DNA of 64,000 nucleotides. It comes from an uncultured Actinomycetes bacterium (GTDB lineage: Bacteria > Actinomycetota > Acidimicrobiia > IMCC26256 > DASPTH01). The stretch spans positions 38,418 to 102,417 of the forward strand of contig CAWELN010000011.1 in NCBI GenBank assembly GCA_963809795.1, given 5' to 3'. The position numbers and the translations under genes are program-made. The notes beneath the pieces were generated by a model. It saw nothing but the letters and a program-made list of their open reading frames with translations, did not search any database and was not told the DNA's origin. Shown here piece after piece: positions 14,179-47,756 of this stretch (the stretch's first letter is position 1; each line of letters starts with the position of its first letter).

Positions 14179-15835
14179 GTTCGACGTCGTCGTGGTCGGT
14201 TCCGGGCCGGGAGGTGCCACCGCGGCCGACGTGCTCACCGCCGCCGGGAAGTCGGTCTGCGTCCTCGAGAAGGGCCGCAACCACCTCCTCGCGCTGGTGC
14301 CGCCCTTCGACGGGCTCGGCCACCTGTCGAACGACGAGGTCAAATTCGCCCGGCGCCACTTCCTCGGTCCCGACCCGCTGCTCGAGCCGCGCACCTACCG
14401 GCGCTCGACGGCCGACGGCGAGCGGCTCGCCACCCGCGATCTCAACAACATGCCCTCGACGGTCGGCGGCGCCGGTTTCCACGCCGACGGGAAGCTGCCG
14501 CGCTACCGCGAGGTCGACTTCCGCCTCGCGTCGGAGCTGGGGCCGGTCGAGGGTGCCGAGGTCGCCGACTGGCCGCTCGACTACGACGAGCTCGAGCCGT
14601 TCTACGCGGAGGCCGAACGCGCGATCGGCGTGGCCGGCGACCACACCGGCAACCCGTTCGCCGCGTGGCGCAGCGGTCCGTATCCGATGCCACCGGGCGC
14701 CGACATGTACCTCACGACCCTGACCGCGCCCGCGGCCGCGACGCTCGGATACCACCCGTACCGCGCGCCGACCGGCGCCAACAGCGTGCCCTACGACGGT
14801 CGGCCCGCGTGCAACAACTGCGGGTTCTGCGCCTTCTACGGTTGCCCGATCGACGCCAAGGGCGACCCGGTCGCCATGCTGCGCCGCTCGCTCGGGCGCG
14901 GGCGCTGTGAGCTGCGCCCCGAGAGCATCGCGCTCGAGATCCTGCTCGACCGCGGCGGCGCGCGCAGCACCGGGGTGCGCTACCTCGACGGCGACGGGGT
15001 GGAGCACACGGTGTCGGCGGACGCGGTGGTGGTCGCGTGCGGCGCGTTCGAAACCCCGCGCCTCCTGCTGCGCAGCGGCATCGGGAACTCGTCGGACCTG
15101 GTCGGTCGCTTCCTCATGTTCCACCTGCAGACGATCGTGCTCGGGTTCTTCCCGTTCCGGCTCCACGCCCACAAGGGCCGCGACGTCACGCACCTCATGG
15201 ACGACCCGATCGTCGGCGACGCCGAGAGCGCCGCCGCCGCACGCGCCGCGGGGGTGCCCTACCTGCGCGGCGGCATCGTCGAGCACGGTGGCAACGGCCA
15301 CCCGATCTTGGAGGCGCTCTTCCTCCCACCCGGCCCCGACCACACCGCGCTCATGCTCGACTCGACCACCCGCGACAAGATGGTCGCCTTCACGATGCAG
15401 GGCGAGGATCTGCCCCAGTTCACGAACCGCGTTGATCTCGACGGCGGCGTGCGCGACGTGTGGGGACTCCCGGCGGGCCGGGTGACGTACGCACCCCACG
15501 CGCACGAGGTCGCGTGCGCGCACCACTGGGGGCCGCGGCTCGAGGCCGTGTTGCGAGCGGCGGGCGCGCAGGGCACGTCGTGGGTCACGTCGCCCGGCAC
15601 GCCCGGCACCATCGCGCCCGACATCGAGCCGATGTCGAAGCACTGGATGGGAACCGCGCGCATGGGCACCGATCCCGGGACGTCGGTGTGCGACCCGTGG
15701 CAACGACTGTGGGACGTCGACAACGTCGTCGTCACCGACTCCTCGGTGTTCCCGACGTCGACGGGCTACGGCCCCACCCTCACCCTGGTCGCGCTCGCGC
15801 TACGCGCGGCGGGCGCGCTGGCGGCCTCGTTGTGA
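14171..15835 (+). CDS. GMC family FAD-dependent oxidoreductase
   Basis: FDVVVVGSGPGGATAA FAD fold. 554 aa with C-terminal GTARMG...VVDSSVFPTS, typical of GMC oxidoreductases. Confidence 0.9.
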   Translation: MPEFDVVVVGSGPGGATAADVLTAAGKSVCVLEKGRNHLLALVPPFDGLGHLSNDEVKFARRHFLGPDPLLEPRTYRRSTADGERLATRDLNNMPSTVGGAGFHADGKLPRYREVDFRLASELGPVEGAEVADWPLDYDELEPFYAEAERAIGVAGDHTGNPFAAWRSGPYPMPPGADMYLTTLTAPAAATLGYHPYRAPTGANSVPYDGRPACNNCGFCAFYGCPIDAKGDPVAMLRRSLGRGRCELRPESIALEILLDRGGARSTGVRYLDGDGVEHTVSADAVVVACGAFETPRLLLRSGIGNSSDLVGRFLMFHLQTIVLGFFPFRLHAHKGRDVTHLMDDPIVGDAESAAAARAAGVPYLRGGIVEHGGNGHPILEALFLPPGPDHTALMLDSTTRDKMVAFTMQGEDLPQFTNRVDLDGGVRDVWGLPAGRVTYAPHAHEVACAHHWGPRLEAVLRAAGAQGTSWVTSPGTPGTIAPDIEPMSKHWMGTARMGTDPGTSVCDPWQRLWDVDNVVVTDSSVFPTSTGYGPTLTLVALALRAAGALAASL

Positions 15836-16392
15836 GCGAGCCGTTCGCCGACGTGGACACGCTGTTCGACGCGTTGCGGGCGTCGCGCGACGCCGACGAC
15901 GAAGGTGGTCTCTCGATCCTCGAGCACTGCCTGCAGTGCGCCGAGCTCTTGCGCATCTCGCGCGCCGGCGACGACGCGCTGCAGGTCGCGGGGCTCGTGC
16001 ACGACCTCGGTTGGCTCGAGCGATCGGGCGATGGGTGGACACTGCGGCTCGACGCCGCACACGACGTCGACGGTCGCGCGCTCGTGGAGCCCCTGCTCGG
16101 CGACCGCGTGGCGAGCCTGGTCGGCGGGCACGTCGCCGCCAAGCGGTACCTCCTCACCACGGACCCTGACTACGCCACGCTCCTGTCGCACCGGAGCGAG
16201 GTGACGCTGGGCTTCCAGGGCGGCCTCATGGACGCGGCCGAGGTGGCGGCGTTCGAGCGCCGCTCCGACCGCGCCGACCTGGTCGCGCTCCGCCGGGCCG
16301 ATGACGCGGCGAAGGTCCGGGGCAAGGACGTCGACCCGCTCGAGTCGTGGCTCCCCGTCGTCACCAGCATGTGTCGAACGAGGAGCACATGA
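15832..16392 (+). CDS. HD-domain protein with PhnZ/TmpB/MIOX-like six-ligand pattern (putative mixed-valent diiron oxygenase)
   Basis: GTG shares GTGA with the GMC stop (15832-15835). Candidate ligands, counted from the GTG: H32 (LEHCLQC), H57-D58 (GLVHDLG), H77 (AAHDVDG), H100 (GGHVAAKRYL), D157/D158 (RRADDAAK). QGGLM segment is present. About 186 aa, as for PhnZ-type proteins. Confidence 0.65.
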   Translation: MSEPFADVDTLFDALRASRDADDEGGLSILEHCLQCAELLRISRAGDDALQVAGLVHDLGWLERSGDGWTLRLDAAHDVDGRALVEPLLGDRVASLVGGHVAAKRYLLTTDPDYATLLSHRSEVTLGFQGGLMDAAEVAAFERRSDRADLVALRRADDAAKVRGKDVDPLESWLPVVTSMCRTRST

Positions 16393-16427: not shown

Positions 16428-17507
16428 TCAGAGCAGCGAACGACCGGTCGCGCCCGGGAGCTCGAGATCGAGGAGGGCGGCGACGGTCGGGGCCCAGTCG
16501 GCGGCCGTGATCCGACGGTCGCCGAGCGCGTCGACCAGCCGTCCCACGGCGGGGTGGCCGCCGGTGACCACCGCCACCTGGCTGCGGGTGCGGGGGCCGC
16601 CGTGGGTGCCGAGCTCGATGCCCATCTCCTCGAACCCGAAGGCGCGCCCCGCGACCGACCACGCCAGGCAGCACTCGAGACTCGGGTCGGCGACCGGGAA
16701 CGGTGCGGTGCCCTCGATACCGTCGACCTCGGAGAGCCACGCACGCGCGTCGTGCGCACCGGCGCCGCAGACGACGGTGGCGTTGCCTTCGGGGAGCGCG
16801 AACAGATCGACGCCCCGCCGGGCGAACACCGGACGCAGGTCGATGGGCGGCCGGTCGTCGAGCCCCTCCTGGTCGTGGTCGGACACGACGATCCACACGG
16901 TGTCGGCCCAGTCGAGGTGGTCGCGCGCCGCGACCAGCAGCGCGTCGGTCTCGCGGTACACGGCCAGCGCCGCCTCGCTGTCGGGACCGTGCACGTGGGC
17001 CGCGGTGTCCGGCGCGTTCAGCTGGCTGATCACCAGATCGGGACCGGCGTCGAGCGCGGCGACCAGCTCTACGATCGTGTCGCGGTCGTCGATGTAGTCG
17101 TGCGCGTCGCGTCGAGCGCTCGCCGGCGGAACACCGTCGGGCGGCCAGTGGGTGTCGGCGGTGACGGCCCCGGTGACACCCACCAGGCACTGGTCGCCGA
17201 ACACGGCCGCGGAGGACCGCCCCGCGGCACCGCACGCGTCGAAGAGCGTGGGCACGGCCGGTCCGAGCTCCCATGCCGGCACCACCGATCCCGTGACCGG
17301 CACCCAGTTCGTGACGATGCCGTGATCGCGTGGCGGCGCGCCGGTCACGAAGGTGGCGTGGTTGGGATACGTGGCCGAGGTCATGACCGAGCGGGCCCGG
17401 ACGGGCGCACCGCCCACCGCCCGCGCCAGCTCCGCCAGGACCGGGGTGTGCTCCTCGCCGACGTGGCGAAACGGGAGCGCGTCGAGGACGGTCATGACGA
17501 CCTTCAT
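16428..17507 (-). CDS. alkaline-phosphatase-superfamily type I phosphodiesterase/nucleotide pyrophosphatase (NPP)-like enzyme
   Basis: NPP metal/nucleophile motifs are all present: VLDALP, SATYPNHATFVTGAPPRDHGIVTN (Thr nucleophile), APDTAAHVHGPDS, VVSDHDQ, GTHGG. Start ATG overlaps the PhyH stop (ATGA, 17504-17507). Confidence 0.8.
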   Translation of the reverse strand: MKVVMTVLDALPFRHVGEEHTPVLAELARAVGGAPVRARSVMTSATYPNHATFVTGAPPRDHGIVTNWVPVTGSVVPAWELGPAVPTLFDACGAAGRSSAAVFGDQCLVGVTGAVTADTHWPPDGVPPASARRDAHDYIDDRDTIVELVAALDAGPDLVISQLNAPDTAAHVHGPDSEAALAVYRETDALLVAARDHLDWADTVWIVVSDHDQEGLDDRPPIDLRPVFARRGVDLFALPEGNATVVCGAGAHDARAWLSEVDGIEGTAPFPVADPSLECCLAWSVAGRAFGFEEMGIELGTHGGPRTRSQVAVVTGGHPAVGRLVDALGDRRITAADWAPTVAALLDLELPGATGRSLL

Positions 17508-18281
17508 GCCGGCCGACCCTCGAAGTCGCCGATCAGCGACACCAGCGCCCGATCACCGGGATCGGCTCGGGCGAACGCGGCCTGCTTGTGCGCGTAGTAC
17601 TCGGCCCTGCGGTCCCCTTCGGACGCGGCGTTGTAGGTGGGGTAGAGCGCCCGGCGCGGCCGCGACGAGCGATTGGCCGCGCTGCGGTGCGGGGTGCGGC
17701 TGTGGAACCACAGCGTGCTCCCGGCCGGCACCGCCACCGGTAGCCAGTCGAGCGACGCGGCGACGGTGGGCTCGATGCACCCGCGCGCGTCGGTGGGCAA
17801 CACCGCGTCGAAGTGGTCGGACACCACCTCGAGGCCGCCGTTCGTCTCGTCGGCGTCGTCGATCGCGATCAGCGCCGACACGTGCGCGGAGATCATCGGG
17901 TACGCAGGGGCGTCTTGATGCGCCGAGTACCCGGCACCACCGGGCAGCTTGTAGTTGATCTTCTCCTTGTAGAGCACCGCCGGTTCACCGAGCAGCCGGC
18001 CCGCGACGTCGAGGAGGGTTCCGGTGCACAACAGCGTGCGCAACTCGGAGTGCGCGGGGAGGAAGTTCTCGCTGCGGCAGAGCTGCGCCCCGTGGTCGGT
18101 CGCTTCCCGGTGCTGGAGCACGCCGGTCGCGTCGGGCAGCGCGGCGACCTCGTCGGCCCAGCGCGCCAAGGCGCGCGCGTGCGCGTGGTGAGAGCGCGTC
18201 GACCACCACCCACCCGTGATCGGTGAAGTGCGCGGTCGCGGCGTCGAGCTCGGTGCGTGTCACCGAGTTGACAGTAGCCAC
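17504..18281 (-). pseudogene. phytanoyl-CoA dioxygenase (PhyH) family Fe(II)/2OG dioxygenase, interrupted by a 1-nt frameshift at ~18191-18194 (or a sequencing error)
   Basis: The C-terminal 221 codons (17504..18169) carry AHQDAP (HxD) and HSRTPHRS. The expected N-terminus VATVNSVTRTELDAATAHFTDHGWVVVDAL is in another frame starting at GTG 18281 (or 18263). The main frame has a TGA upstream and no start codon before a TTG at 18169. Confidence 0.7.
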
Positions 18282-18300
18282 GGCAACTGTCGCGCTGCGT

Positions 18301-18342
18301 GGGAACCCGGTACGCTCCGCAGCGGCGGGAACCAGCGGTACG
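18301..18342. promoter_or_regulatory. direct repeat GGGAACC(N0/2)CGGTACG x2 in the PhyH / transporter divergent region
   Basis: GGGAACCCGGTACG at 18301-18314 and GGGAACCagCGGTACG at 18327-18342, in the 78-nt gap between divergent starts ~18281 and ~18360. Confidence 0.3.
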
Positions 18343-18359
18343 GTCTGGGGGGAGCGGCG

Positions 18360-20573
18360 TTGACGGAGACGCAGCACGGCGACGCGAGCGCGGCCTCACT
18401 CGCCGCCACCGTGCTCGACGAGGAGGATGCGCGGGAACAGGCGCAGAAGCGCGCGCGGGAGCAGGTCATCTTCCCCGACGACCTGCTGCCCGGCGTCCAC
18501 TCCGAGCCCGTCTCCTTCAAACAGGCGTTCAAGGTCGGCGGCAAGCTCATGTTCGTCGTGCTGCTGCTGCTCTACTCGTTCGACGAGCTCGAGGGCGCGG
18601 CCATCAACGTGCTCGCCCCCGAGATCCGGCGGACGTTCCACATCAGCTCGGGCACGATCGTCTTCATCGCCAGCGCGTCGTCGGCCTTCTTCGTGCTCGG
18701 TGCCGTGCCGATGGGTTGGCTCGCCGACCGGGTGAAGCGGGTACCGATCGTCGGGTGGGCCAGCCTCGCCTTCGGCTTCTTCGTGTTCCTCTCCGGTCTC
18801 GCGGTGAGCGCGTTCATGCTGTTCTGGACGCGCTTCGCCACCGGCATCGCCAAGGCGAACAGCATCCCCGTCCACCAGTCCCTCATCGCCGACAACTACC
18901 CGATCGGGATCCGGGCCCGGATGTCGGCCGCCATCAACATGGGCGGCCACGGCATCGGCCTGGTCAGCCCGGTGCTGTGCGCGGCCATCGCCACGTGGGC
19001 GGGTGGGGTCGAGGGCTGGCGGTGGGCGTGGTTCCTGCTCGGCATCCCGGTGGTGTGCGTCGCCGTCCTCGCGTTCTTCATGAAGGAACCGCCCCGCGGG
19101 CAGTTCGAGAAGCAGGACGTGCTCGGTGAGGTGATCGAGGACGAGCAGCCGGCGCCCATCTCGATGGAGGCCGCCTTCGCCCGCATCAAGCGCATCCGGA
19201 CGATCCGCACCGTCCTCGTCGGTTTCTGTGCCCTGGGGTTCGGCCTGTTCAGCCAGCCCGCGCTCGAATCGCTGTACCTCGACGACAACCTGCACGTGAG
19301 GGGCGTGCTCGAACGCGGGATCATCCTCAGCCTCTCGGGCATCCTCGCCCTGCCGATGCTGCCGTTGGTCGGCCGCTACTTCGACAAGAGGTACCGGGAG
19401 GACCCGGCACGCGCGCTCGCGCTGGTCGGACTGCTGATCCTGCCGTCGGCACTGCTCACCCCGCTGCAATTCAGCGTGCAGAGCTCCACCTGGTTCTGGA
19501 TCTTGAAGATCCCGCAGGCGGTGTTGACCGCGTCCGCGTTCGCGATGGTGGGCCCGGTGCTCCAGGCGGTGGTGCCGTACCGGCTGCGCGGCATGGGCAC
19601 CGCCATGTCGACGCTGTACATCTTCTTCATCGGTGGCTTCATGGGTGGCCTCGTGTCGGGCTTCCTCACCGACGCCATCGGGATCCGGGGCACCGTGATC
19701 TTCCTCGGGGTGCCCAGCGCCATCATCGGCGGGCTGCTGCTGATGAACGGTGCCCGGTACATCCGCAACGACCTCTCGCTCGTGGTCGAGGAGCTGCTCG
19801 AGGAGAAGGACGAGCACGAGAAGCGCTTCGTGCAGAAGACGGCGGTGCCGCTCCTCCAGCTCGCCAACATCGACTTCTCCTACGGACCGGTCCAGGTGCT
19901 CTTCGGGGTCGACTTCGAGGTGCAGAAGGGGGAGACCGTCGCGCTGCTCGGCACCAACGGTGCGGGGAAGTCGACCGCGCTGCGCGTGATCAGCGGCCTC
20001 GCCGTACCCGAGCGCGGTGTGGTCCGCCTCAACGGTCAGAACATCACGTACGTCGCGCCCGAGGGTCGGGCCAAGTACCTGAGCATCATGCAGCTGCCCG
20101 GCGGGCACGGTGTGTTCGGCAACCTCACCGTCGACCAGAACCTGGCGGTGAGCGCTCGGCTCAATGCCGAGAGCCGGAGCCAGGTGCACCAGCGGATGGC
20201 GGCCGTCTACGACCTGTTCCCCGAGCTCGCCGGGAACGGGAAGCAGGTCGCCAGCAGCATGTCGGGCGGGCAGCAGCAGATGCTGGCGCTGGGCCGGGTC
20301 CTGATCCACGAGCCCGAGCTCCTGATGATCGACGAGCTCTCGCTCGGTCTGGCCCCGCTGGTGGTGCAGCGCCTGCTGGAGGTGGTCGAGGAGCTCAAGC
20401 TGCGCGGCCAGACGATGATCATCGTCGAGCAGTCGCTGAACGTCGCGATGGCCCTCGCCGACCGCGCCATCTTCCTGGAGAAGGGCCAGGTGCGGTTCGA
20501 GGGATCGACCGAGGGGCTCCTCGAACGCGGCGACCTCGCCCGGGCGGTGTTCTTCGGGACCGAGGGCGGCTGA
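18360..20573 (+). CDS. fusion protein: 12-TM MFS transporter domain + LivF-like ABC ATPase domain
   Basis: Start uncertain (TTG 18360 after GGGGGGAG; track ORF begins at 18216). MFS motif A GWLADRVKRVPIVG, about 12 hydrophobic helices, acidic linker, then NBD motifs GTNGAGKST, MSGGQQQMLALGR, LLMIDELSLGLAP. Confidence 0.85.
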   Translation: MTETQHGDASAASLAATVLDEEDAREQAQKRAREQVIFPDDLLPGVHSEPVSFKQAFKVGGKLMFVVLLLLYSFDELEGAAINVLAPEIRRTFHISSGTIVFIASASSAFFVLGAVPMGWLADRVKRVPIVGWASLAFGFFVFLSGLAVSAFMLFWTRFATGIAKANSIPVHQSLIADNYPIGIRARMSAAINMGGHGIGLVSPVLCAAIATWAGGVEGWRWAWFLLGIPVVCVAVLAFFMKEPPRGQFEKQDVLGEVIEDEQPAPISMEAAFARIKRIRTIRTVLVGFCALGFGLFSQPALESLYLDDNLHVRGVLERGIILSLSGILALPMLPLVGRYFDKRYREDPARALALVGLLILPSALLTPLQFSVQSSTWFWILKIPQAVLTASAFAMVGPVLQAVVPYRLRGMGTAMSTLYIFFIGGFMGGLVSGFLTDAIGIRGTVIFLGVPSAIIGGLLLMNGARYIRNDLSLVVEELLEEKDEHEKRFVQKTAVPLLQLANIDFSYGPVQVLFGVDFEVQKGETVALLGTNGAGKSTALRVISGLAVPERGVVRLNGQNITYVAPEGRAKYLSIMQLPGGHGVFGNLTVDQNLAVSARLNAESRSQVHQRMAAVYDLFPELAGNGKQVASSMSGGQQQMLALGRVLIHEPELLMIDELSLGLAPLVVQRLLEVVEELKLRGQTMIIVEQSLNVAMALADRAIFLEKGQVRFEGSTEGLLERGDLARAVFFGTEGG

Positions 20574-23426
20574 TGACCCTCGCCACCGTGGTGACGTGGA
20601 ACCTGGTGTTCAAGGGCGTCGTCGGCGGCCTGATCACCGCGCTGGTGGCCATGGGCATCGTCCTCGTGTACCGCTCGTCCCGGGTCATCAACTTCGCGGT
20701 CGGCAGCATCGGCCTCCCGGCCACCGCGCTGTTCGCGGTGATGGTCGGGGTCCACGGCTGGCCGTACTGGCCGTCCCTGTTCGCCGCGTTGGCCGTCGGC
20801 ACGCTCACCGGCGTGCTGGTCGAGCTGGCGGTCATCCGCCGCCTGTTCAAGTCGCCGCGCGTCATCGTGCTGGTCGCCACCATCGGTGTCGCGCAACTGT
20901 GCGAGGCGATCACGCTCTCGCTGCCCGCCTACCGCACCGGCTCCTTGCAGACCCAATTCCCGGTGCCGTTCAGCGGCACGTGGTACCCGGGGCTCGGCAT
21001 CGAGGTCTCCGCCAGCCAGCTCCTCGTACTGATCGTGGTGCCGGTCATCACCGTCGGGCTCTGGTGGCTCCTCGGGCACACCGCGTTCGGCGACGCGGTG
21101 CGCGCGGCCGCGTCGAACTCCGACCTCGCCCGCATGACGGGCATCAACCCCAAGATGGTCTCCACCGGTGTGTGGGCGATCGCCGGCTTCCTGGGCACGG
21201 TCGCGATCCTGCTCACCGCCACCGACCAGACCTCGGCCGATCTCGTGCACATCGGGCCCGACACGCTCCTGCGCGGCATGGCGGCGGCGCTGATCGGGGG
21301 GATGGTGTCGTTCCCCCGCGCCGCGGTCGGTGCCGTGCTGATCGGCATCCTCGACCGGGTGCTCTTCTTCAACTACACCTCGGAGACCGGCCTGGTGCAG
21401 TTCGTGCTGTTCCTCGCGGTGCTGGTGCTGGTGGCACGGGTCAGCCGCAACGAGACCGGCGCGGAAGGCGAGAGCTTCCAGTTCGCGCCGCGGATCGCCG
21501 CGGTGCCGGAGCGGCTGCGCAACATCTGGTGGGTGAAACGGCTCCCCCAACTCGTCGCCGCGCTCACGCTGCTCGTGGCGCTGGTCCTCCCGTTCCTCTC
21601 CGACAAGTCGGAGCGTCACCAGACCTGGGCCACCATCATCGCCTTCGCGCTGTGTGCGATCTCGGTGGTGGTGCTCACCGGCTGGGGTGGTCAGCTCTCA
21701 CTCGGCCAGATGGCGTTCGCCGGTCTGGGCGCGCTCACCGCGGGTGCCCTGATCCGGGGCCTGCAGTTCAACATCGGGTGGCGCGGCACCCGGTTCCTCG
21801 ACGGCGGGCTCCCGAGCATCTCCTTCCCGTGGGCGCTCCTGCTCGGCGCGGCCTTCGCCAGTCTCGTCGCGGTGATCGTCGGCATCGGGGCCTTGCGCGT
21901 CCGCGGGCTGTTGCTCGCGATCAGCACGCTGGCGTTCGCGATCGCGGCGCAGGCCTACATCTTCAGCCGTCCCATCTTCACCGCCGGCAGCACCACGATC
22001 GAGATCCCACGCACGGACCTCGGTCCGCTCGAGCTCACCCACCGCAACCGCGCGTACTACTACTTCGTCTTGTTCGTGCTCGTCCTCGTCTTGGTGCTCG
22101 TCTCGCACCTGAAGCGCACCGGCATCGGTCGCATGATCGTCGGAGTGCGCGAGAACGAGCTCGCCACCTCCGCCATGACGGTGTCGCCGGCGCGGGCGAA
22201 GCTGCTCGCGTTCGCGATGGGCGGGTTCATCGCCGGCCTGGGCGGGGTGCTCCTGGGCGCGGTGAACCTCACGTTCGCGCCGGCCGAGCAGCACTTCTTC
22301 CTGGTCGACGACTCGTTGCGGCTGGTTGCCATCGTCGTGATCGGCGGCCTCGGCAGCCTCGCGGGCGCGGTCGCGGGCGCGGTGTGGGTGATCGGGCTGC
22401 CCGCGTTCTGGCCCGAGCAACACGCTGGTGCCGCTGTTCACGTCGAGCATCGGCCTGCTCATCATCCTGCTCTACATTCCCGGCGGGTTCGTGCAGATCG
22501 GGTACTACGTGCGCGACTCGCTGCTCCGGTGGGTCGACAAACGCCTGGGACCGGTCGACACCACCAAGACGGTCACCGCGCCGCCGGCGTCGCTCCACCG
22601 CGACCTCGCGCTGGAACCGGCGTCGCTCAACGGCGACGGGTCGGTGCTCGCCACCGAGCACCTGACGGTCCAGTTCGGCGGTCTCACCGCGGTCGACGGC
22701 GTCGAGTTCCGGGCCATGCCCGGCGAGGTGATCGGCCTCATCGGCAACAACGGCGCCGGGAAGTCGACGCTGCTGAACGCGATCGGGGGCTACGTGCCGG
22801 CCAAGGGCACCGTGCAGCTCCTGGGCCACGACGTGAGCAGCAAGAAGGCGTACCAGCGTGCCCGCCGCGGGCTCGGCCGAACGTTCCAGTCGGCGCGCCT
22901 CTATCCCGAGCTCACCGTGCGCGACACCGTGCAGCTCGCGCTCGAGGCCCGCCAGTCGACGTCGTTCTGGGGCTCCCTGTTGTGGGTGCCGTCGATCCGG
23001 CCCGAGCGCAAGAAGTACGCGGAGGCGAGCGAGCTCATCGACTTCCTCGGACTCGGTCGCTATGCCGACCGGTACGTCGCCGAGCTCTCGACCGGGACGC
23101 GCCGCATCGTGGAGCTGGCGACGGTCCTCGCGGTCGCGCCGCGCGTCATCTGCCTCGACGAGCCCACGGCGGGGGTGGCCCAGCGTGAGGCCGAGGCGTT
23201 CGGGCCGCTGATCCTGCGGGTGCAGCAGGAGCTCGACGCCACCCTCGTCGTCGTCGAGCACGACCTGCCGCTGATCCTCTCGGTCAGCAGTCGGATCTAC
23301 TGCCTGGAAGCAGGGCGGGTGATCGCGGAGGGCCTCCCGGCCGCGATCCGCGAGGACCCGCGCGTCATCTCGTCGTACCTGGGCACCGACGAGCGCGCCA
23401 TCCAACGGAGCAACGCGCCCGGGTAG
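20573..23426 (+). pseudogene. fused LivH-LivM permease + LivG-like ATPase of a branched-chain-amino-acid-type ABC importer, split by a 1-nt frameshift at ~22416-22421 (or a sequencing error)
   Basis: ATG 20573 overlaps the previous stop (TGATG). Frame A (20573 to ~22418) encodes the LivH then LivM domains and then decays into Arg/Pro/His-rich nonsense. Frame B (track ORF 22428..23426) starts inside the last LivM helix (PLFTSSIGLLIILLYIPGGF) and continues into an NBD (GNNGAGKST, LSTGTRRIVELA, VICLDEPTAGV). Deleting one base in GAGcAACACG gives a continuous ...GLPAFWPENTLVPLFTSS... Confidence 0.8.
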
Positions 23427-23433
23427 GCCTTCG

Positions 23434-24799
23434 TCAACCTGCCTTGGCGCACTTGCCGTTGCTGGCGTCCTTGATCGGGGTCAGCTTCTTCCAGTCACCG
23501 GTCGTGCCGAGGCTCGAGTCGTAGGACACGAGGCGGAAGCTGTCCTCGGCCGCGTACTTGCCCTTGCACAGCGAGGCGAACTTGTCGGGCACGAGTGCGA
23601 TCGGCCCGAAGGTGTCGACCGTCTTCTGCCAGTTCGCCACCGTGAGGTCGGGGCCCACCTTCTTGGCGATGTCCCGGAACATGAACAGCTCCCCGCAGAA
23701 GTCGGTCACGGCCTGGTCGGTGTAGACGGACTTCCCGTTGCTGTCGACCTTCCGCTGGTCCGGACCAGGCACGGTCGTGCCCGTCGCCTTCTGGTAGATG
23801 TCGACGCACTGCTGCAGCAGCGGGCCCTTGTTGGCCCAGCGCTCGGTCGGCGTGAGGCCGGTACCGCTCAGCAATCCCTCGTACGGGTTGGGCTTCTTCC
23901 CCGCCTTCTGCTCGTCCTGGGCCTGTCCGAGCGTGGTGTCGGCGTCGGTCACCAACTGCACCTTGGGCATCGACGCCTTGATGGTCTCGGCGAACTGCTT
24001 CGCCGACGCGTCGTTCCCGGACATGAGCACCATGTTGACGCCCTCGGTCTTCCACTTCTCGATGAAGCTGTCGAGCTGGGCCTGGGCCGCGGTGGTGTCG
24101 GTGCCGGTGATGGTGAGGATGGCGGTCGACCCCGTCTTCGCCTTCACCTTCTTCAGTGCAGGCACGGTGACCTTGTTCACGCTCTCGGCATTGTTCTTGT
24201 CGCCGAGGACGGCCGACCGTCTTGCCCTTGAGCCGGCCGGTCGACGAGAGCAGGTTCACCAGCTCCTCCGAGACGCCCTGCTTGGTGGCGTCGGGGGTGA
24301 GCAGGAGCCCGCCGGGCGCGGCATCGATCCACGGCTGGTCCAGCTCGTGACCGATGTGGATGACCTTGTGCTCCTTGGCGAGGCACAGCTGGCCCTGGCC
24401 GCTGAAGTCGATGAACACGCCGAGCACCGCGAAGACCTTGTCATCCTCGGCCCAGGCCGTGCACAGCGAGAGCGGGTCGGGCGTGCCCCCCGGGATCGGC
24501 GGGTACTTCTTGTACACCGGGATGATCTTCCGGCCGTCGATCCCGCCGTTGTTGTTGATGTAGTCGACGAAGGTCTGCGCGACCTTCTGCGTGTCGCCGA
24601 AGGTGTAGTCGACGAAGTCCTTGATCGCGGTGAAGTCGATGAGGGCGATCCCGACCTTGATCGAGTCCTTGGTGACGCCCTGGGTGCCGCCGCTGCTGGC
24701 GGCGCGGTTCGTCGCCCCCAGCGTGAGCGCGGCGAGCAGGAGTACGACGATGCAGACTGACAGCGTCGCGTGGCGACGCGGGGTTCGCGCGAGTGCCAT
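23434..24799 (-). pseudogene. LivJ-type ABC substrate-binding protein, copy 1, interrupted by a 1-nt insertion at 24213-24214 (or a sequencing error)
   Basis: The N-terminal part from ATG 24799 (MALARTPRRHATLSVCIVVLLLAALTLGA...GRLKGKTV) and the C-terminal part (track ORF 23434..24180) are in different frames. Removing one G from minus-strand ACGGTCGGCCGTC restores KTVAVLGDKNNAESVNKVTVPALKK, colinear with copy 2. Confidence 0.8.
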
Positions 24800-24893: not shown

Positions 24894-26282
24894 CTAGGTC
24901 CCCGACCCCGCCGCCTTGGCGCACTTGCCGTTGCTGGCGTCCTTGATCGCGGTGACCTTCTTCCAGTCGCCACCGTCGCCCAGGGCGGAGTCGAACGAGA
25001 CCAGCCGGAACCCGTCGTTGGCGGCGTACTTGCCCTTGCACAGCGACGAGATCTGGTTGGGCACCAGCTGGATCGGGCCGAAGGAGTCGACCGTCTTCCG
25101 CCAGGTCTTGGGCGTCAGGTTCGGTCCCACCTTCCGGGCGATGTCGCGGAACATGAAGAGCTCGCCGCAGACGTCGGTGACCGCCACGTCGAGCTGCACC
25201 TTCTTGCCGCTGCTGTCGACCTTCTCCGAGTCGGGGGCGGGGATGGTCTCGCCGGTCGCCTTCTGGTAGATGTCGACGCACTGCTGGAGCAGCGGGTTCT
25301 TGTTGGCCCACCGCTCCGACTGCGTGAGGCCCGTCGCGGTGAGGATCCCTTCGTACGGGTTCGGCTTCGTGCCCGCGGCGGTCTCGTCGCGGCCCTGCGC
25401 GATGGTGGTGTCGGTGTCGGTGACGAGCTGCACCTTCGGCAACGAGTGCTTGATCGTCTCCACGAATTGCTTGGCGGAGACGTCGTTCCCGGCGAGGAAC
25501 ACGGTGTTGACGCCCTCGCTCTTCCACTTCTCGATGAAGCTGTCGAGCTGTGACTGCGCGGCAGTGGTGTCGGTGCCGGTGATGGTCACGATCGCGGTGG
25601 ATCCGGCCTTCGCGCCGGCCTTCTTGACCGCGGGGACCACGATGTCGTTCACCCGGCTCTCGCTGTTCTTGTCGCCCATGACCGCGACCGTCTTGCCCTT
25701 GAGCTTCCCGGTCTGGGCGAGGAGGTTGACGACGACGGCCGCCGCCTGCTCCTTGGTCTCGTCGGGCGTGAGCAGCAGGCCGCCCTTGGCCTCGTCGATC
25801 CACGGCTGGTCGAGCTCGTATCCGATGTGGACGACGTCGTGCTCCTTGGTGAGGCACAGCTGGCCCTGGCCGGTGAAGTCGATGAACACCCCGAGGACCG
25901 CGAACACGTCGTCGTCCTCGGCCCATGAGGTGCACAGGGAGAGCGGGTTGGGCTGGCCGCCCGGGATCGGCGGATACTCCTTGATGTCGGGCACGATCTT
26001 GCGCCCGTCGATGCCGCCGTTCTTGTTGAGGTAGTCGACGAACGTGTTGATGACCTTCTTCTCGTCGCCGAGGTTGTAGTCGACGAAGTCCTTGATGGCG
26101 TCGTAGTCGACGACCGCGAACCCGATCTTGACGGAGTCGGCGGTGACGCCGTGTCCCAGGTCCTGGTTGCCGGCCGCGCCGGGCGTGCTCGTCGTGGCGC
26201 CCAGGGTGAGAGCGGCGACGAGCAGCGTCACCGCGCAGACCACCCAGGTCGAACGTCGGCGGAGAGGAGTACTGAACGACAC
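24894..26282 (-). CDS. LivJ-type (type I periplasmic binding fold) ABC substrate-binding protein, copy 2, intact
   Basis: 462 aa from GTG 26282. Signal peptide RRRSTWVVCAVTLLVAALTLGA. Colinear paralog of 23434..24799. Sequence resembles Leu/Ile/Val-binding-protein-type receptors. Confidence 0.85.
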   Translation of the reverse strand: MSFSTPLRRRSTWVVCAVTLLVAALTLGATTSTPGAAGNQDLGHGVTADSVKIGFAVVDYDAIKDFVDYNLGDEKKVINTFVDYLNKNGGIDGRKIVPDIKEYPPIPGGQPNPLSLCTSWAEDDDVFAVLGVFIDFTGQGQLCLTKEHDVVHIGYELDQPWIDEAKGGLLLTPDETKEQAAAVVVNLLAQTGKLKGKTVAVMGDKNSESRVNDIVVPAVKKAGAKAGSTAIVTITGTDTTAAQSQLDSFIEKWKSEGVNTVFLAGNDVSAKQFVETIKHSLPKVQLVTDTDTTIAQGRDETAAGTKPNPYEGILTATGLTQSERWANKNPLLQQCVDIYQKATGETIPAPDSEKVDSSGKKVQLDVAVTDVCGELFMFRDIARKVGPNLTPKTWRKTVDSFGPIQLVPNQISSLCKGKYAANDGFRLVSFDSALGDGGDWKKVTAIKDASNGKCAKAAGSGT

Positions 26283-26381
26283 GTGCGATGCCCCCGGTCA
26301 GTCGGTCGCGGGAAGAGTATGGCGGTGGCGTGCGCCTGTCCCGTCATCTCGGCGTACGGTGGGCGCGGGGGAGGGCGCCGG

Positions 26382-27764
26382 ATGGGACCACGGATCACGA
26401 TCATCGGCGGGGGCAGCTACCAGTGGACGCCGAAGCTGCTCGTCGACTTCGTCAACACGCCCGCGCTGCAGGACGCGCACGTGGTCTTGCACGACATCGA
26501 TCCCACCGCGCTTCCACGCATGGTCGATCTCGCACACCATCTCGCCGACATCCGCGGCATCACGCTGACTGCATCCGGGACGACCGACCGCGGTGCCGCG
26601 CTCGATGGCGCCGACTTCATCGTGGTGAACATCTCCACCGGCGGCTTCGCGTCGATGCGCCACGACCTCGAGATCCCCGAGCGTCACGGCGTGCGTCAGA
26701 CCGTCGGTGACAGCGTCGGACCGGGCGGCGTGCTCCGGGCGTTGCGGAACATCCCGGTCTTCCTCGATCTCGCGACCGACGTCGCCGAGCGGTGCCCGGA
26801 CGCGTGGTTGCTGAACCTCACCAACCCCATGACGACGATCTGCCGGGCGCTGACCCGCGAGACACCGCTGAAGGCCGTGGGCCTCTGCCACGAGGTCACG
26901 ATCACGCAGTTCCTCCTCAGCCTCCTGCTCGACGTCGGGTTCATGGACCTCACGCTCACGGTCGGTGGGGTCAACCACCTGCCGTTCGTGACCGCCGTCG
27001 ACGTCGCCGGTGACGACGGGTTGGAGCTGCTGCGGGCGGTGGTGGGCGACGCGGAGGCCCGCCGCGACGAGCCCCTGGCGATGGCGATCCCCGACGGCCT
27101 CGACTTCGAGAAGGTGTCGGAGGGACCCGACTGGACGAAGGGCGACCTGTTGCGGCACTGGCGGGTGAAGCTCGAGCTCTTCGACCGCTTCGGCGTGCTG
27201 CCGGGCGCCGGCGACCGCCACGTCGCCGAGTTCTTCCCCAACTTCCTCACCGAGGAGTCCGGGTGGGGGACGCGGTGGGGCGTCGGCCTCACGACCATCG
27301 AAGACCGCGAGCGTGACCAGGAGGCGCACGTGGCCGCGCTCGACGCGATGCTGGCCTGCCGCGAGGTCGAGTCGTTGCCGTCGGGGGAGATGGTGGCGCC
27401 GGTGATCCAGTGTCTCCTTCTCGACCAGCCGGGGAGCTTCCCGCTCAACGTGCCCAACGACGGTCAGGTCGCCGACCTGCCGCTCGGGGCCACCGTCGAG
27501 AGCATGTGCCTCGTGAGCGCCAACGGCGTGCACGGTCGCGACAGCGTCGCGCTGCCGGCACCTCTCGCAGAGTGCCTGCGCCGCGTGTCGGCGTCGCAGG
27601 AGCTCACCGTCGACGCCGCGATGAGCGGCGACCGTGACGCCGCGTTCGCGGCGATGCTGCTGGACCCGCTCACGAGCCGGCTCGACTACGACGCCATCGC
27701 GGTCATGACCGACGAGATGCTCGACGCCACCGCGGCGTGGCTGCCGCAGTTCTCGAAGCTGTGA
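26382..27764 (+). CDS. glycoside hydrolase family 4 (NAD+/Mn2+-dependent) enzyme
   Basis: ATG 26382. RITIIGGGSYQWTPKLL, LNLTNPMTTICRAL and VGLCHEV are GH4 hallmarks. 460 aa. Confidence 0.85.
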   Translation: MGPRITIIGGGSYQWTPKLLVDFVNTPALQDAHVVLHDIDPTALPRMVDLAHHLADIRGITLTASGTTDRGAALDGADFIVVNISTGGFASMRHDLEIPERHGVRQTVGDSVGPGGVLRALRNIPVFLDLATDVAERCPDAWLLNLTNPMTTICRALTRETPLKAVGLCHEVTITQFLLSLLLDVGFMDLTLTVGGVNHLPFVTAVDVAGDDGLELLRAVVGDAEARRDEPLAMAIPDGLDFEKVSEGPDWTKGDLLRHWRVKLELFDRFGVLPGAGDRHVAEFFPNFLTEESGWGTRWGVGLTTIEDRERDQEAHVAALDAMLACREVESLPSGEMVAPVIQCLLLDQPGSFPLNVPNDGQVADLPLGATVESMCLVSANGVHGRDSVALPAPLAECLRRVSASQELTVDAAMSGDRDAAFAAMLLDPLTSRLDYDAIAVMTDEMLDATAAWLPQFSKL

Positions 27765-36926: not shown

Positions 36927-38411
36927 TCATCCGCGTCCGGTGGTGGGTCGGGCAGGCGATGCGACCGGGGCCGCGAGCGCGGAGATCGGGGGCACCCGGT
37001 CGGCCCAGGGCCGGGCCCGCTCGAGCTGCCCCGCGAGCTGCAGCAACGTCGCCTCGTCCCCGAACCGCCCGAGGAACTGCACGCCGATCGGGAGACCGGC
37101 GGCGTTCCACCACAGCGGCACCGACATCGCCGGGTTGCCGGTGAAGTTGGCGATGACCCCCGAGTACGCGATGGTACGGCTACCGCGTTCGAGTGCGCGC
37201 GTCGGTGCGTCGGGGGTCGACGTGATCTCGCCGATGCGAGCCGGTGGCTCCGACAGCGTGGGAGTGAGCACGGAGTCGAACCCGTCGAGGAAGTGGGCGA
37301 TCCGCCGTGACAGGCGCTGGAGCTCCTCGACCGCGATGAGGTAGGCGGAGGCCGGGACCGCGCGGCCCTGCTCCCAGAAGTGCCGGGTGAGCGGTTCGAG
37401 CTCGCCGACCTGTGGCTCGCGACCGAGCTCACGCACCCAGTACGCCACGATCCACGCCGTCGCGGAGTCGAAGACCGTGCCGATCGCGCTCCCGGTCACC
37501 TCGTCGAACGCCGGCACGTCAGCCTCCACCATCTCGTGACCGAGCTCGTCGAGCAGCGCGACCGCGTCGTCGAGCGCGGCGATGCAGTCGTCGTGGCCAG
37601 GTTCACCAGACGCGGTGCGGGGGCTGTACGCGATGCGCAATCGGCGGGGTTCGGTCTCGAGCTCGGCCGAGAAGGCGCGCACGGGCGGTGGTGCCACGTA
37701 CGGATCCCCCGGTGCCGGGCCCGCGACCGCGTCGAGCAGCGCGGCCGCGTCGCGTACCGAGCGGGTCACGGCGAACTCGCACCCCCACCCGTGCACGATG
37801 TCGCCGTATCGGGGCGCGTACGACACCCGGGCCCGGGTGGGCTTCAAGCCGAACAGTCCGCACGCCGATGCCGGATAGCGGATCGAGCCGCCGAGGTCGT
37901 CGGCGTGCGCCATGGGCACCATGCGGGAGGCGACGGCGGCGGCGGAGCCCCCGCTCGAGCCGCTCGTCGACCGGTCGGGATCCCACGGGTTGCGGGTCGG
38001 GCCGAACCGCTCCGGTTCGCATGCCGGCGCCATGCCGAACTCGGGCGTGTTGGTCTTGCCGAGGATCACCAAGCCCGCACGCCGGAATCGCGTCACCAGC
38101 TCGGACTCGTACGTGGAGACGTGTTCGCCGAGGAAGCGCGAGCCCTCGCAGAACCGCACACCTTCCATCTCCACCGCGAGGTCCTTCAGCAGGAACGGCA
38201 CGCCGGCGAACGGTCCGGTCACCCCCACGCGGGCGGCATCCAGGGCACGCTCGAAGGTCGGTGTGATCACCGCATTCAGCGTCGGGTTCAGCGCCTCGAT
38301 GCGCTCGATGCCCGCCTGCACGAGCTCGACCGCGTCGACCTCACCGGTGCGGACCAGCGCAGCCTGCGCGGTGGCATCGAGCCCGGCGACGTCCTCGGCC
38401 ACCGTGCTCAT
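36927..38411 (-). CDS. amidase (amidase signature family)
   Basis: ATG 38411. GKTNTPEFG and [12 protein letters not shown] signature. 494 aa. Start overlaps the amine oxidase stop by 1 nt (TGATG). Confidence 0.9.
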
Positions 38412-40321
38412 CAGTCGGCGTGACAGCTGGTGCTGCTCGCCGTCGGCGCGACGTCGAGCGCGGGGTTGCGGTCGAAGAAGCCGAACGGCGAGAGCACGAA
38501 CCCCGTGTACTCGACCGGCATCACCGGCCAGTCTTCGGGGCGCACGAAGTGGGTGACGCCGAACGTGTACCAGAGCACGACGTCGGTGTCGACGAGCGAC
38601 CGGTCGGCGGCGGTCCACCGCGGCAGGCCGTCGCCACCTTCGTGCTGGTTGGGGAACTCGCCCGCGGCGCGTCGCTCGTCGGCGCGGTACGGCGTGACCC
38701 ACAGGTTGTGACGGGCGAAGCCGGCGCGCCGGCCCACGCTCGAGTCCGGTGCCGCCAGCATCGTCGGGGTCGACGCGGTGGGGACGAGCCGGTAGCCGAC
38801 GGGCTGGTCGAGCCCGTTGCGGCTGGCTTCGTTCACCACGCGCCACGCACGGCTGGTCGCGGCGTTGGTGTCGCGCCGGGCCGCCAGCTCGCTCGCCAGC
38901 GGCGTGACACGCGAGCGGAACGCGTTGCCCCACGGGTTGTCGGGGCCGGGGGGCACCGCTTCCGCCTCGACCTCGTAGACCGAGTTCACCGGGCCGTCGA
39001 CGTCGAGGTCGAGCCGGGCCGAGAAGAGGTGCTGGTGGTGCGGCGCGGCGATGCCGGGCGCGATCACGTTGGCGAACTCGGGCTGCATACCGGGCTCGAT
39101 GGCCATCGGCGACACGATCCCGGTGAGCTTCACCTCCAGTTGGATGTTGCCGTCGAGGTAGAAGTACCAGTAGAAGCCGTACTCGTAGTTGCCGACGGTG
39201 GCGATGAAGCTGACGACCAGCCGACGCGATCGCCGCGTCTCGTCGGTGCCGCCGTGCAGGTCGTGGTGCTTCCAGAGGATCCCGTAGTCCTCCTCGTGGA
39301 GGCACACCGCGTTCGGGACCGTGTAGGGCTGTCCCTGCTCGGTGCTCAGCACCGCGTCGAAGTAGTGGATGACGCCCAGGCAGTCGCAGCCGAGTTGGAG
39401 CGAGTTGCCCATGCGGCCGAGGCCCCACTCGCCGGCGTCGAACGCGTTCTTCCACCCGTGCATCGGGCCGGGGTCGCCGTAGGGCACGACCATCTCGGAG
39501 ATCGACGCCCGGTACAGCACCGGCCGGACCCGGTCGCCGTCGTGGTAGCCGACGGTGTGCAGGACGAGGCCCTCGTACGGGTCGAAGCCGACGCGGAACG
39601 ACCACCGCGACCAGCGCACGTGGTTGCCGTCGACCACGAAGCTCGCACCGTCGGGCTGCACGATCTCCAGCGGCTGGAGGTCGTCGCGCATCGGCCCGAT
39701 GTCGTCGGCGAGGTACGCGCCCCGGTCGGTCGGCATGGGCACGACGCCGAGGTCGACCACCTCGAGCACCTCGCCCGCACCCTGGTCGAAGAACGCGATG
39801 ACGCCCTCGATCGGTTGGGCGTATCCGTTGTCCTGCGGTCGCGCCCGCAGGTAGGAGATGCAGCGGCTGATCCGCCGGCCGTCCTCGTGGGCGACACCGA
39901 ACGATCCCGCCGGCCACGGGTCGATCTGCACGCGGTCGAAGTCGTCGATGCCGCGCCGCCGCAGCGCGGCCTGCCACTCCGGGTGCTCCTTCACCTTCAC
40001 GATGGCCGACATCGACTCGCCGAAGAGCAGCGCGGGCCGCATGTCGGGATGCACCGCCCACGAACGGACCTCGCCCTTCGTGACCGAGACGACGACCTCG
40101 GTCACCTCCAGGCGCCCGGGCGGCACGAGCAGCGCCTCCAGCTCCCGGTCGACGGGGGCGCCCGGTTCGTGTCCGAGCACCGTGGTCTTGTCCGGCTCGT
40201 GCAGGCGCACGTGGACGAACGCGGCGTCGACCTCGAAGCGGGGATCGGCGGTGATCACCGCGACCGCGCGGCTGACCTCGTCGGACGTGAGGGCGTCGAG
40301 CGGGTGCGCCGCCGCGGGCAT
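38411..40321 (-). CDS. copper-containing primary amine oxidase (topaquinone enzyme)
   Basis: 636 aa. TPQ consensus [11 protein letters not shown], Cu ligand region APHHQHLF, and C-terminal [19 protein letters not shown]. No signal peptide visible. Confidence 0.93.
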
Positions 40322-46773: not shown

Positions 46774-47712
46774 TCAGGCGTCGGTGCGTCCGGCCGCGGC
46801 GCGGAACGCACCCACGAGCTCGCTCAGCTCCTCGACCGCGGCCGACTCGTCCTCGGGCAGTCGGACGCCGGCACGGACGTCGGTGAGACCGGCGGCCGCG
46901 AGCGCGGGGACCGCCTCCATCGTGCGGTCGAGATCGAGCGAGCCGTCGTCGGCCCTCACCATTCGCAGCGCGCCCGTGACCTGGAGGCCCTCGGGATCGC
47001 GGCCGGCGTCGGCGAGCAGCGTGCGCATCTCGGCGATCCCGGCGACGGGGTCGGCGGCCGCGGGACCCCACGGGATCCAACCGCTCCCGAAGCGGGCCAG
47101 GCGCCGGACCACCCGCGGGTTGATGGTGCCGCTGACCCAGATCGGCACGCCGCCGGCCTGGAGGGGCTTCGGCATCATGTGGATGGCCTCGAACTGCAGC
47201 TCGGGCGAGTCGTAGGCCGCCCGCGGCTCGCGCCAGAGCGTCTGGAGCACCTCGAGGGTGTGGTCGAGCAGGCGTCCGCGCCGGTCGAAGTCGAGGCCGG
47301 CGGCCTCGTACTCCTCCCGCTGCCAGCCGACCCCGACGCCGAGGTCGAGGCGGCCGCCCGACAGCACGTCGAGCGTCGCGGTCGACTTCGCCAGCACCGC
47401 GGGCCGGCGCAGCGCGGCGACCAGGATGTTGGTGCCGAGGCGGATGCGCGAGGTCATGCCCGCGAGCACCGACAACGTGGTGAGCGGCTCCAGCCAGTGG
47501 CCGTCGGGCCCGGTCGGCTGCTTGCCGCCCGCCTGACCGCCGATCTCGGGGCGGCCGTACTCCTCCAATCGTTCGCCGAACACCACGTGGTCGGACACGA
47601 CGAGACGGTCGACGCCCGCCCGGTCCGCGACCCGTGCGGCGCGGAACAGCGGCTCCCACGTGCCGGGATCCTCGGCGGCGAACGACGTGACTCCGATCGA
47701 GAGCTGGATCAT
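46774..47712 (-). CDS. LLM-class (luciferase-like) flavin/F420-dependent oxidoreductase
   Basis: 312 aa. VSDHVVF, LGTNILVAALRRPAVLAK, GGRLDLGVGVGWQREEY are typical of F420-dependent LLM enzymes. Confidence 0.85.
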   Translation of the reverse strand: MIQLSIGVTSFAAEDPGTWEPLFRAARVADRAGVDRLVVSDHVVFGERLEEYGRPEIGGQAGGKQPTGPDGHWLEPLTTLSVLAGMTSRIRLGTNILVAALRRPAVLAKSTATLDVLSGGRLDLGVGVGWQREEYEAAGLDFDRRGRLLDHTLEVLQTLWREPRAAYDSPELQFEAIHMMPKPLQAGGVPIWVSGTINPRVVRRLARFGSGWIPWGPAAADPVAGIAEMRTLLADAGRDPEGLQVTGALRMVRADDGSLDLDRTMEAVPALAAAGLTDVRAGVRLPEDESAAVEELSELVGAFRAAAGRTDA

Positions 47713-47756
47713 GGCGCGGAGCCTACGCTGCGTCGGGTGACATCACCCCGGGGGAA

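Follow-up and report, generated by a model that had tools for sequence, protein, structure and literature searches.

What does a complete membrane carrier do when it shares one polypeptide with the ATPase of an ATP-driven importer? ABC transporters and carriers of the major facilitator superfamily (MFS), which no other transporter superfamily exceeds in size, are regarded as working by separate mechanisms, and this question is raised by a locus that combines both in a 64,000-nucleotide stretch of DNA from an uncultured bacterium of the Acidimicrobiia (contig CAWELN010000011.1 of assembly GCA_963809795.1; the whole stretch is referred to as the window). Here, gene 1 (18360..20573, plus strand) encodes a 737-aa fusion of a Spinster-like MFS domain and a LivF-type ATPase, and the adjoining gene 2 (20573..23426, plus strand) encodes LivH, LivM and LivG in one chain. 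The comparison with related genomes showed that the MFS-LivF core is constant across two actinobacterial classes, while the remaining fusions vary. We tentatively read the locus as a binding-protein-dependent importer of the HAAT family (LivHMGF/Urt) with an obligatory fifth, Spinster-like MFS module.

The MFS-LivF fusion and its spread

Gene 1 begins with TTG and ends with TGA. The TTG at 18360 is the likely start codon: the sequence GGGGAG lies five bases upstream of it, and the 737 aa counted from this codon equal the length of the gene 1 homologues. Pfam assigned MFS_1 (E 7.9e-38) and then ABC_tran (E 1.1e-24) to the product, and its translation in the open reading frame (ORF) map contains GWLADRVKRVPIVG, EELLEEKDEHEKR, GTNGAGKST, MSGGQQQMLALGR and LLMIDELSLGLAP; the original prediction of an MFS domain followed by a LivF-like nucleotide-binding domain (NBD) was thereby confirmed with every motif quoted for it. 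In an AlphaFold2 (AF2) model of the protein (predicted local distance difference test score, pLDDT, 80; predicted template modelling score, pTM, 0.71), the helices of the MFS domain are visible. The protein starts with a cytoplasmic segment (residues 11-46; 18390..18497, plus strand) that comprises a predicted helix (residues 11-34 in the AF2 model), the motif A-x-V-L-x-E-E-x-x-R, which is also present in distant family members, and then FPDDLLPGV. This segment is followed by the 12-helix Spinster-family MFS domain (residues 55-468; 18522..19763, plus strand), with LADRVKR as its motif A. According to the AF2 secondary structure, transmembrane helix 12 (TM12) extends into the connector (residues 469-497; 19764..19850, plus strand) as a cytoplasmic acidic helix that reaches about residue 491, and some 7 residues separate the end of this helix from the first strand of the NBD. 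In an alignment of 76 family members, the connector residue D471 is kept in at least 90%, and its distance to Walker A is 58-61 aa in 73 of the 76. The LivF-type NBD (residues 498-737; 19851..20570, plus strand) has Walker A GTNGAGKST, the signature SGGQQ and Walker B IDELSLGLAP. Its best NCBIfam models were LivF (E 3.6e-51) and UrtE (E 6.6e-50), and its best solved relative was the Thermotoga LivF-like ATPase 1JI0 (E 8e-45; TM-score 0.91). Only two NBDs are encoded in the 64-kb window (G+C ~70%), which leaves LivG no partner other than the MFS-linked LivF. Scans of 18100-18500 and 23300-23600 for promoters and terminators found nothing.

How widespread is this fusion? A locus scan with full-length alignment, which used one genome per GTDB species and was anchored on IDELSLGLA, yielded 80 loci, a number that is a lower bound. 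The MFS domain lies directly N-terminal to LivF in all 80 species-level genomes returned, and at least 120 full-length MFS_1+ABC_tran database clusters of ~735 aa show 71-93% identity to the gene 1 product, so that the domain arrangement goes well past what chance would produce. Across its 12 helices the MFS domain aligns without gaps (31-53% identity, and 46-63% for the NBD). Furthermore, a search with the MFS part only against 1.84 billion cluster representatives (E<1e-30) matched 221 clusters, and a Walker A or signature motif was present towards the C-terminus of every full-length match (~700-750 aa; identity as low as 30%). Stand-alone MFS members were sought among matches of ~450-860 aa; of the 15 shorter matches whose C-terminus was read, most run out into Arg-rich tails read in the wrong frame, or are truncated or irregular in some other way, and at most one or two stand-alone candidates are still in doubt. 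A misassembled MFS-NBD junction, which had been considered from the outset, is contradicted by these full-length homologues and the 80 genomes: across hundreds of independent assemblies, finished isolate genomes included, the two parts are read in one frame.

The arrangement around the MFS-LivF core falls into several forms. The window's order, [MFS-LivF][LivH-LivM-LivG], occurs in 52 of the 80 loci (41 intact, and 11 frame-broken or cut by contig ends), and a further 4 loci have [MFS-LivF][LivH-LivM][LivG]. Another 22 have the order [LivH-LivM][MFS-LivF-LivG], termed type B, and the remaining 2 have other gene orders. The earlier statement that all remaining modules are fused holds in the window and does not extend to the family, where the other fusions vary. 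The MFS-LivF-LivG chain of ~1000 aa is a large family of its own (at least 120 clusters), which NCBI usually names plainly 'MFS transporter'. Most hosts belong to the Acidimicrobiia (Ilumatobacteraceae, Microthrixaceae, Iamiaceae and the sponge-associated Ca. Poriferisocius), and the cultured Actinomycetes among them are Embleya sp. NBC_00888, two Yinghuangia, Dactylosporangium sp. CA-233914 and Kribbella pittospori.

Two points concern individual records. A 1789-aa single chain, LivH-LivM-MFS-LivF-LivG, read from locus L056 (3688-9057) was rejected: DNA alignment with L082 revealed a 1-nt insertion and an Arg-rich wrong-frame stretch, and the locus is of type B. This false fusion is a caution for fusion calls in metagenome-assembled genomes (MAGs) built from long reads. 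Moreover, L006, L072, P0378 and P0383 are among records labelled Burkholderiales, Bifidobacterium breve or Ca. Angelobacter; these labels probably reflect mis-binned or mislabelled MAG contigs.

The published literature that we searched, which did not extend to InterPro and TCDB, gave no description of an MFS-ABC or Spinster-LivF fusion, and a Streptomyces transporter census that covers both families does not mention an MFS-ABC fusion. The original prediction knew of no characterised example, and the literature gave none; as for its proviso that the family might be common and already characterised, the former proved true and the latter found no match in print. Overall, the MFS-LivF system is common in genomes, machine-annotated and functionally unexplored. 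Not contained in the original prediction were the Spinster type of the MFS domain, the constancy of MFS-LivF amid otherwise varying fusions, the culturable hosts and the origin of the frameshift in an assembly error.

The importer half and its binding proteins

Gene 2 overlaps gene 1 in TGATG, with the TGA of gene 1 at 20571-20573 and the ATG of gene 2 at 20573-20575. Without one extra base it encodes 950 aa, as judged by Pfam, NCBIfam and tblastn with a 950-aa orthologue, and comprises a LivH domain (~20573-21472), a LivM domain (~21473-22492) and a LivG NBD (22644-23423), all on the plus strand. Pfam detected two BPD_transp_2 stretches in 20573-22420 (PF02653, E 2e-52), and ABC_tran plus BCA_ABC_TP_C (PF12399, E 1.9e-10) in 22428-23426. 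The best NCBIfam models were UrtB/LivH for residues 11-287, UrtC/LivM for residues 331-607, and LivG/UrtD for the NBD (LivG E 2.8e-59). The two frames contain GNNGAGKST, LSTGTRRIVELA and VICLDEPTAGV. By sequence, no solved structure matched the LivH/LivM permease. Thus, the overlap, the three modules and the 1-nt frameshift near 22418, with a chain of ~950 aa once it is bridged, were all found as originally described.

The extra base that breaks gene 2 is a C at 22418 (gag-C-aac, plus strand). When the intact 950-aa orthologue was used as the tblastn query, its residues 1-617 matched one frame (88% identity) and residues 608-948 the next (86%), with the switch at FWPDNQLVPLF of the orthologue, which reads FWPE/NTLVPLF in the window. 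In orthologues at 74-93% identity, gene 2 is uninterrupted and 949-950 aa long. A near-identical contig (L086, 99.27% identical over 21.3 kb) is free of the extra bases near 22418 and at 24213 and carries an extra C of its own at 23141, which splits gene 2 at another place. The window and L086 differ by 45 single-base indels over 14894-36202; besides the C at 23141, L086 has ~40 further single-base indels. Because these single-base indels are not common to near-identical assemblies, the extra base at 22418 is, on the strength of these alignments, an assembly or consensus error and not biology; a pseudogene or a programmed shift was ruled out by L086, which does without the base, together with the uninterrupted orthologues. 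The indels relative to L086 are densest at 32.2-35.5 kb. Over the whole comparison they are mostly extra bases in L086, in which many genes are split. Other ORFs of the window, especially at 32-36 kb, may hold consensus errors too.

In HAAT importers, an extracellular LivJ-type protein hands the solute to the LivH/LivM channel, and a LivG/LivF heterodimer hydrolyses ATP to drive import. The locus has the structural make-up of this family, namely a permease pair, LivG and LivF NBDs, and a LivJ-like substrate-binding protein (SBP) nearby. As in E. coli LivJ/K-HMGF and the urea importer UrtABCDE (Transporter Classification, TC, 3.A.1.4), there are two BPD_transp_2 domains, a LivF-type NBD, a LivG-type NBD with a BCA_ABC_TP_C tail and an SBP of type 1 (Peripla_BP_6). 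By this analogy, the HAAT part is predicted to carry out ATP-dependent uptake. Unlike in those systems, LivF here bears a 12-TM MFS domain, LivH, LivM and LivG form one chain, the Walker B of LivF has DELS instead of DEPS, and the SBP is 11-17% identical to solved ones. The scores also missed the NCBIfam equivalog cut-offs (LivF 173.9 vs 441; UrtE 169.7 vs 285.8; LivG 200.5 vs 362; UrtB 109.5 vs 250.3), and for this reason neither branched-chain amino acid nor urea specificity can be assumed. As read from the translation, the signature of LivG (22644-23423) is LSTGT rather than LSGGQ, and the H-loop position of LivF is Q (IVEQS). These changes suggest one degenerate and one consensus ATP site, a pairing that may be a general trait of HAAT importers.

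Two binding-protein genes follow, both convergent with the transporter. SBP-a (23434..24799, minus strand) is a LivJ-type substrate-binding protein, orthologous to the single SBP of the relative L004. In the window, an extra C at 24213 interrupts the gene (tblastn frame switch at ~24215-24228); L086 has it intact, with 454 aa. SBP-b (24894..26282, minus strand; 462 aa) is its intact tandem paralogue, ~70% identical, and a type-1 periplasmic binding protein (Pfam Peripla_BP_6, E 1e-11); only the proximal SBP is found in L004. The AF2 model of SBP-b (pLDDT 85.7) has the type-1 periplasmic binding protein fold. A Foldseek comparison gave the R. palustris aromatic-acid binders 4EY3, 4EYG and 4EVS as its best matches, with Leu, urea, amide and fatty-acid binders scoring almost equally (11-17% identity for all; TM-score 0.6-0.73 for LivJ, aromatic-acid and urea SBPs); by sequence, the SBP had no match in the PDB. 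Most COG0683 proteins of R. palustris were found to bind aromatic, fatty or dicarboxylic acids (PMC3223731). The label 'branched-chain amino acid' is unsafe for SBPs of this COG0683 type, and the transporter substrate is not safely a branched-chain amino acid either.

Clustering of the flanking ORFs of the 80 loci showed a single recurrent class of neighbour, which is a binding protein. A Peripla_BP_6 protein of ~460-500 aa adjoins the system in 28 loci (BLAST), and 15 more have a remote homologue. The partner of type B systems (~570-620 aa) had no Pfam match, even at E 1, and is a remote homologue of the same SBP (hhalign 99.7%, E 1.5e-25). With an SBP beside both forms, every form looks like an importer that depends on a binding protein. 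The type B partners (L084, 3856-5727; L085, 3957-5663; L056, 9112-10860) carry a hydrophobic anchor at the N-terminus and a long linker rich in Gly, Ser and Asp.

The MFS domain and its possible roles

Having placed the fusion in an importer, we turn to the MFS domain itself. Its profile matched HnSpns best among PDB entries (6E8J, E 3.9e-33), followed by SPNS1 (E 1e-27) and SPNS2 (E 2e-20), and the Spinster hallmarks L-x-P-D-I after TM1, motif A, the TM4 Arg, D-x-Y-P-x-x-x-R, E-G-W-R-W and R-E-P-P-R-G all align. By sequence and motifs, the domain is a member of the Spinster family (TC 2.A.1.49). In HnSpns, R42 binds the substrate, E129 is the proton master switch, D41 and R122 assist, and D87-R91-D142 form a charge relay that closes the inner gate (PMC9440201). 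Conservation at these positions was counted over the 76 family members. The relay is kept: D123 of the window (HnSpns D87) is conserved in 71/76, R127 (R91) in 75/76 and D178 (D142) in all 76. R158 (R122) is conserved in 62, and position 78 (D41) is acidic in 56. Position 79 (R42) is Arg in only 24 members; it is variable in type A and is Gly (G79) in the window, whereas the type B proteins keep the D-R pair of TM1 (20/20 and 14/20). Position 165 (E129; K165 in the window) is acidic in none of the 76 (Lys in 35, Gln in 14, Arg in 14, Thr in 6 and others in 7). Thus, the domain retains the intracellular gating network of MFS and Spinster carriers, that is, the D-R-D relay and motif A', and has the Spinster charge relay but neither the proton-switch Glu nor a constant substrate Arg. 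Because the proton switch is missing, it probably works unlike HnSpns or SPNS2. The domain is under purifying selection: relative to close relatives, the ratio of nonsynonymous to synonymous substitution rates (dN/dS) was 0.12-0.14 for the MFS domain and 0.07-0.09 for the NBD.

The combination can be compared with several known systems. With the Spinster proteins (bacterial HnSpns, human SPNS1/SPNS2, mycobacterial MsSpns), the domain shares the best profile match, the hallmarks and the relay; it differs from them in its fusion to an ABC ATPase and at the E129 and R42 positions. By analogy and from general knowledge, it resembles the C2 domain of MetNI and the additional domains of MalK, ModC and OpuA (CBS) in being an extra domain on an ATPase that could gate transport; those are small, soluble and C-terminal, whereas this one is N-terminal and has 12 TMs. 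LplT-Aas is a lysophospholipid flippase-acyltransferase in which an MFS carrier is tied to a cytoplasmic catalytic domain, and in such MFS fusions the partner domain acts on or responds to the carrier's cargo. The covalent tie of an MFS carrier to a cytoplasmic catalytic domain is likewise common to the present protein, LplT-Aas and the sensor kinase-MFS fusions; unlike in the latter two, the partner here is one of the two halves of an ABC ATPase on which a different permease pair already depends. The sensor kinase-MFS family is listed as TC 2.A.1.34 (PMC3924187). Half-size ABC exporters (a transmembrane domain, TMD, followed by an NBD; type IV fold) also consist of a membrane domain, a helical extension and an NBD, with similar connector geometry; their membrane domain is not of the MFS fold. 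In Foldseek, only the NBD aligned well (target-normalised TM-score ~0.35 for whole exporters vs 0.91 for the isolated NBD 1JI0).

How might the two halves work together? SBP-a and SBP-b would bring the solute to LivH/LivM, and ATP hydrolysis by LivG/LivF would power import. The MFS domain, joined through a helical connector of fixed length to the N-terminus of the only LivF, would be part of the complex and would still undergo alternating access, with its cycle allosterically tied to the closing and opening of the NBD dimer. It may then offer solutes of the same class, probably amphipathic ones, a second and gated way through the membrane, for example as a relief valve or as a low-affinity route in parallel; kinship with Spinster makes an amphipathic or lipid-like compound a putative substrate of the MFS domain. 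That the two parts work together follows from Rosetta-stone logic because they are fused. We lean towards such a gated second pathway, with an MFS cycle linked to the NBD dimer, over an inert anchor, while giving it not quite an even chance. The coupled uptake/efflux device of the original prediction survives in the form of a possible coupled second pathway.

Several points weigh against this reading. Contact of the MFS domain with LivH/LivM or with the NBD dimer is deduced from the fusion only. The MFS positions conserved in at least 90% of members sit almost entirely on the cytoplasmic face; the cavity has none, which suits diverging substrates and a non-transporting role equally. The loss of the proton switch could mean the loss of transport. 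As for the solute, the classes of binder score alike against SBP-b, so the attempt to read a ligand from the SBP fold was given up, and the flanking ORFs of the 80 loci show nothing conserved beyond the SBP, which makes any substrate class a guess.

Sequence data cannot separate a gated second pathway from a regulatory or scaffold module or from independent carriers that are co-translated, and the rival explanations have to be weighed on indirect grounds. It is possible, albeit rather unlikely, that the MFS domain no longer transports and has become a regulatory, sensing or scaffold module (a 'transceptor', a sensor of membrane state or a docking platform for LivF). This would fit the clustering of conserved positions on the cytoplasmic face beside the NBD, the lack of any position at 90% conservation in TM1, TM7 and TM10, the proton switch absent from all 76 members, the variable substrate Arg and the conserved residues in the connector and N-terminal segment; moreover, ABC importers often have regulatory domains on their NBDs (MetN, MalK, OpuA). 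However, 12 gap-free helices, an intact relay and a dN/dS near that of the NBD exceed what a tether needs, and the D41/R42-like pair of type B suggests that ligand handling persists. Of the anchoring or regulatory domain that the original prediction had allowed for, the anchor-only form is disfavoured by the dN/dS and the retained charge relay, and the regulatory form stands as the possibility just described. We consider it improbable that two independent transporters are merely co-translated, with the fusion ensuring 1:1 expression and co-localisation. Intact MFS gating motifs would agree with this, as would the earlier idea of an uptake/efflux device and the finding that bacterial Spinster homologues act as efflux pumps for amphipathic compounds (PMC9440201). 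Yet an operon suffices for co-expression, and the fusion is found in every one of the 80 genomes returned, with few if any stand-alone members of the MFS subfamily and a connector of fixed length; in addition, the proton switch that an independent Spinster carrier needs for its energisation is absent.

The same absence of an acidic switch residue weakens the canonical proton-driven form of the dual energisation first proposed, and raises the question of whether ATP could take over. NBD closure, transmitted through the TM12-NBD helix, might gate or drive the alternating access of the MFS domain in place of proton coupling, which we rate as slightly less probable than mere co-translation. An ATP-driven or ATP-gated MFS in which NBD dimerisation powers alternating access, and in which the type B form would be a unit of 12 TMs and 2 NBDs, appears more doubtful again. 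In its favour are the proton-switch Glu gone from all members, a rigid helical connector similar in length to the TMD-NBD link of ABC exporters and the presence of both NBDs on the MFS chain in type B. Against it, we know of no MFS carrier that couples to an NBD; the NBDs are of ordinary LivF/LivG type and depend on the coupling helices that LivH/LivM provide, neither these permeases nor an SBP are ever missing, and no element resembling a coupling helix was identified in the MFS loops. Finally, an artefact, whether by misassembly or by pseudogenisation of a decaying locus, is hardly credible. The assemblies are indeed prone to indels, as the 45 single-base differences in 21 kb from the 99.3%-identical contig attest, and the 1789-aa chain of L056 proved to be a 1-nt artefact. 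But the in-frame junction recurs across hundreds of assemblies, including finished isolate genomes, the indels at 22418 and 24213 are not common to the near-identical contig, and both halves of gene 2 are still 86-88% identical to their orthologues.

A complete MFS carrier has been welded to the ATPase of an ABC importer. Selection has preserved the fusion in at least 80 species of actinobacteria, in which the one MFS-LivF core is surrounded by at least three different gene arrangements. If the two halves work jointly, they could reveal a new way to regulate or extend ABC import, the candidate roles for the MFS being a relief valve, a parallel pathway, a sensor or an ATP-gated carrier, and could yield the first function for a bacterial Spinster branch. 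If the ATPase does gate the MFS domain, one ATPase pair would run two pathways, a type-I-like importer channel and an MFS carrier, in a genuine hybrid of primary and secondary transporter architectures; a demonstration that the ATPase gates or drives the MFS would be categorically new. The lineages concerned (Acidimicrobiia, Microthrix, sponge symbionts and soil actinomycetes) are abundant and poorly studied, and the cultured, sequenced hosts in Embleya, Yinghuangia, Dactylosporangium and Kribbella make the question testable. The present annotations, 'MFS transporter' or 'branched-chain amino acid ATP-binding protein', each hide half of the protein.

Neighbouring genes and substrate leads

Upstream of gene 1, across a 100-bp gap and divergent from the transporter, lies a cluster consisting of a PhnY*-like 2-oxoglutarate (2OG) dioxygenase (17504-18259, minus strand; NF052437, E 5.5e-67, below cut-off), a type I phosphodiesterase (16428-17507, minus strand; Pfam) and a PhnZ-like HD oxygenase (15832-16392, plus strand; TIGR03276, E 7.6e-38, below cut-off). 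By its gene content, this cluster seems to resemble an oxidative pathway for cleavage of the carbon-phosphorus bond of phosphonates. Apart from the window, only its three closest relatives (L001, L004 and L047) have this cluster, which does not belong to the transporter itself; it hints at a phosphonate-containing compound as the substrate in the clade of the window and has no bearing on the family as a whole.

On the other side, a GH4 alpha-galactosidase-like gene (26370-27764) adjoins the SBP and recurs in L001, L004 and L047. A GH4 gene is also found near the system, at greater distance, in L052, L055 and L058. The region 27841-51951 is rich in catabolic genes, with two acyl-CoA synthetase-like genes, a thiolase-like gene, several Amidohydro_2 genes and P450s, and it also contains a copper amine oxidase (38411-40321) and an MMPL transporter (47691-50246).

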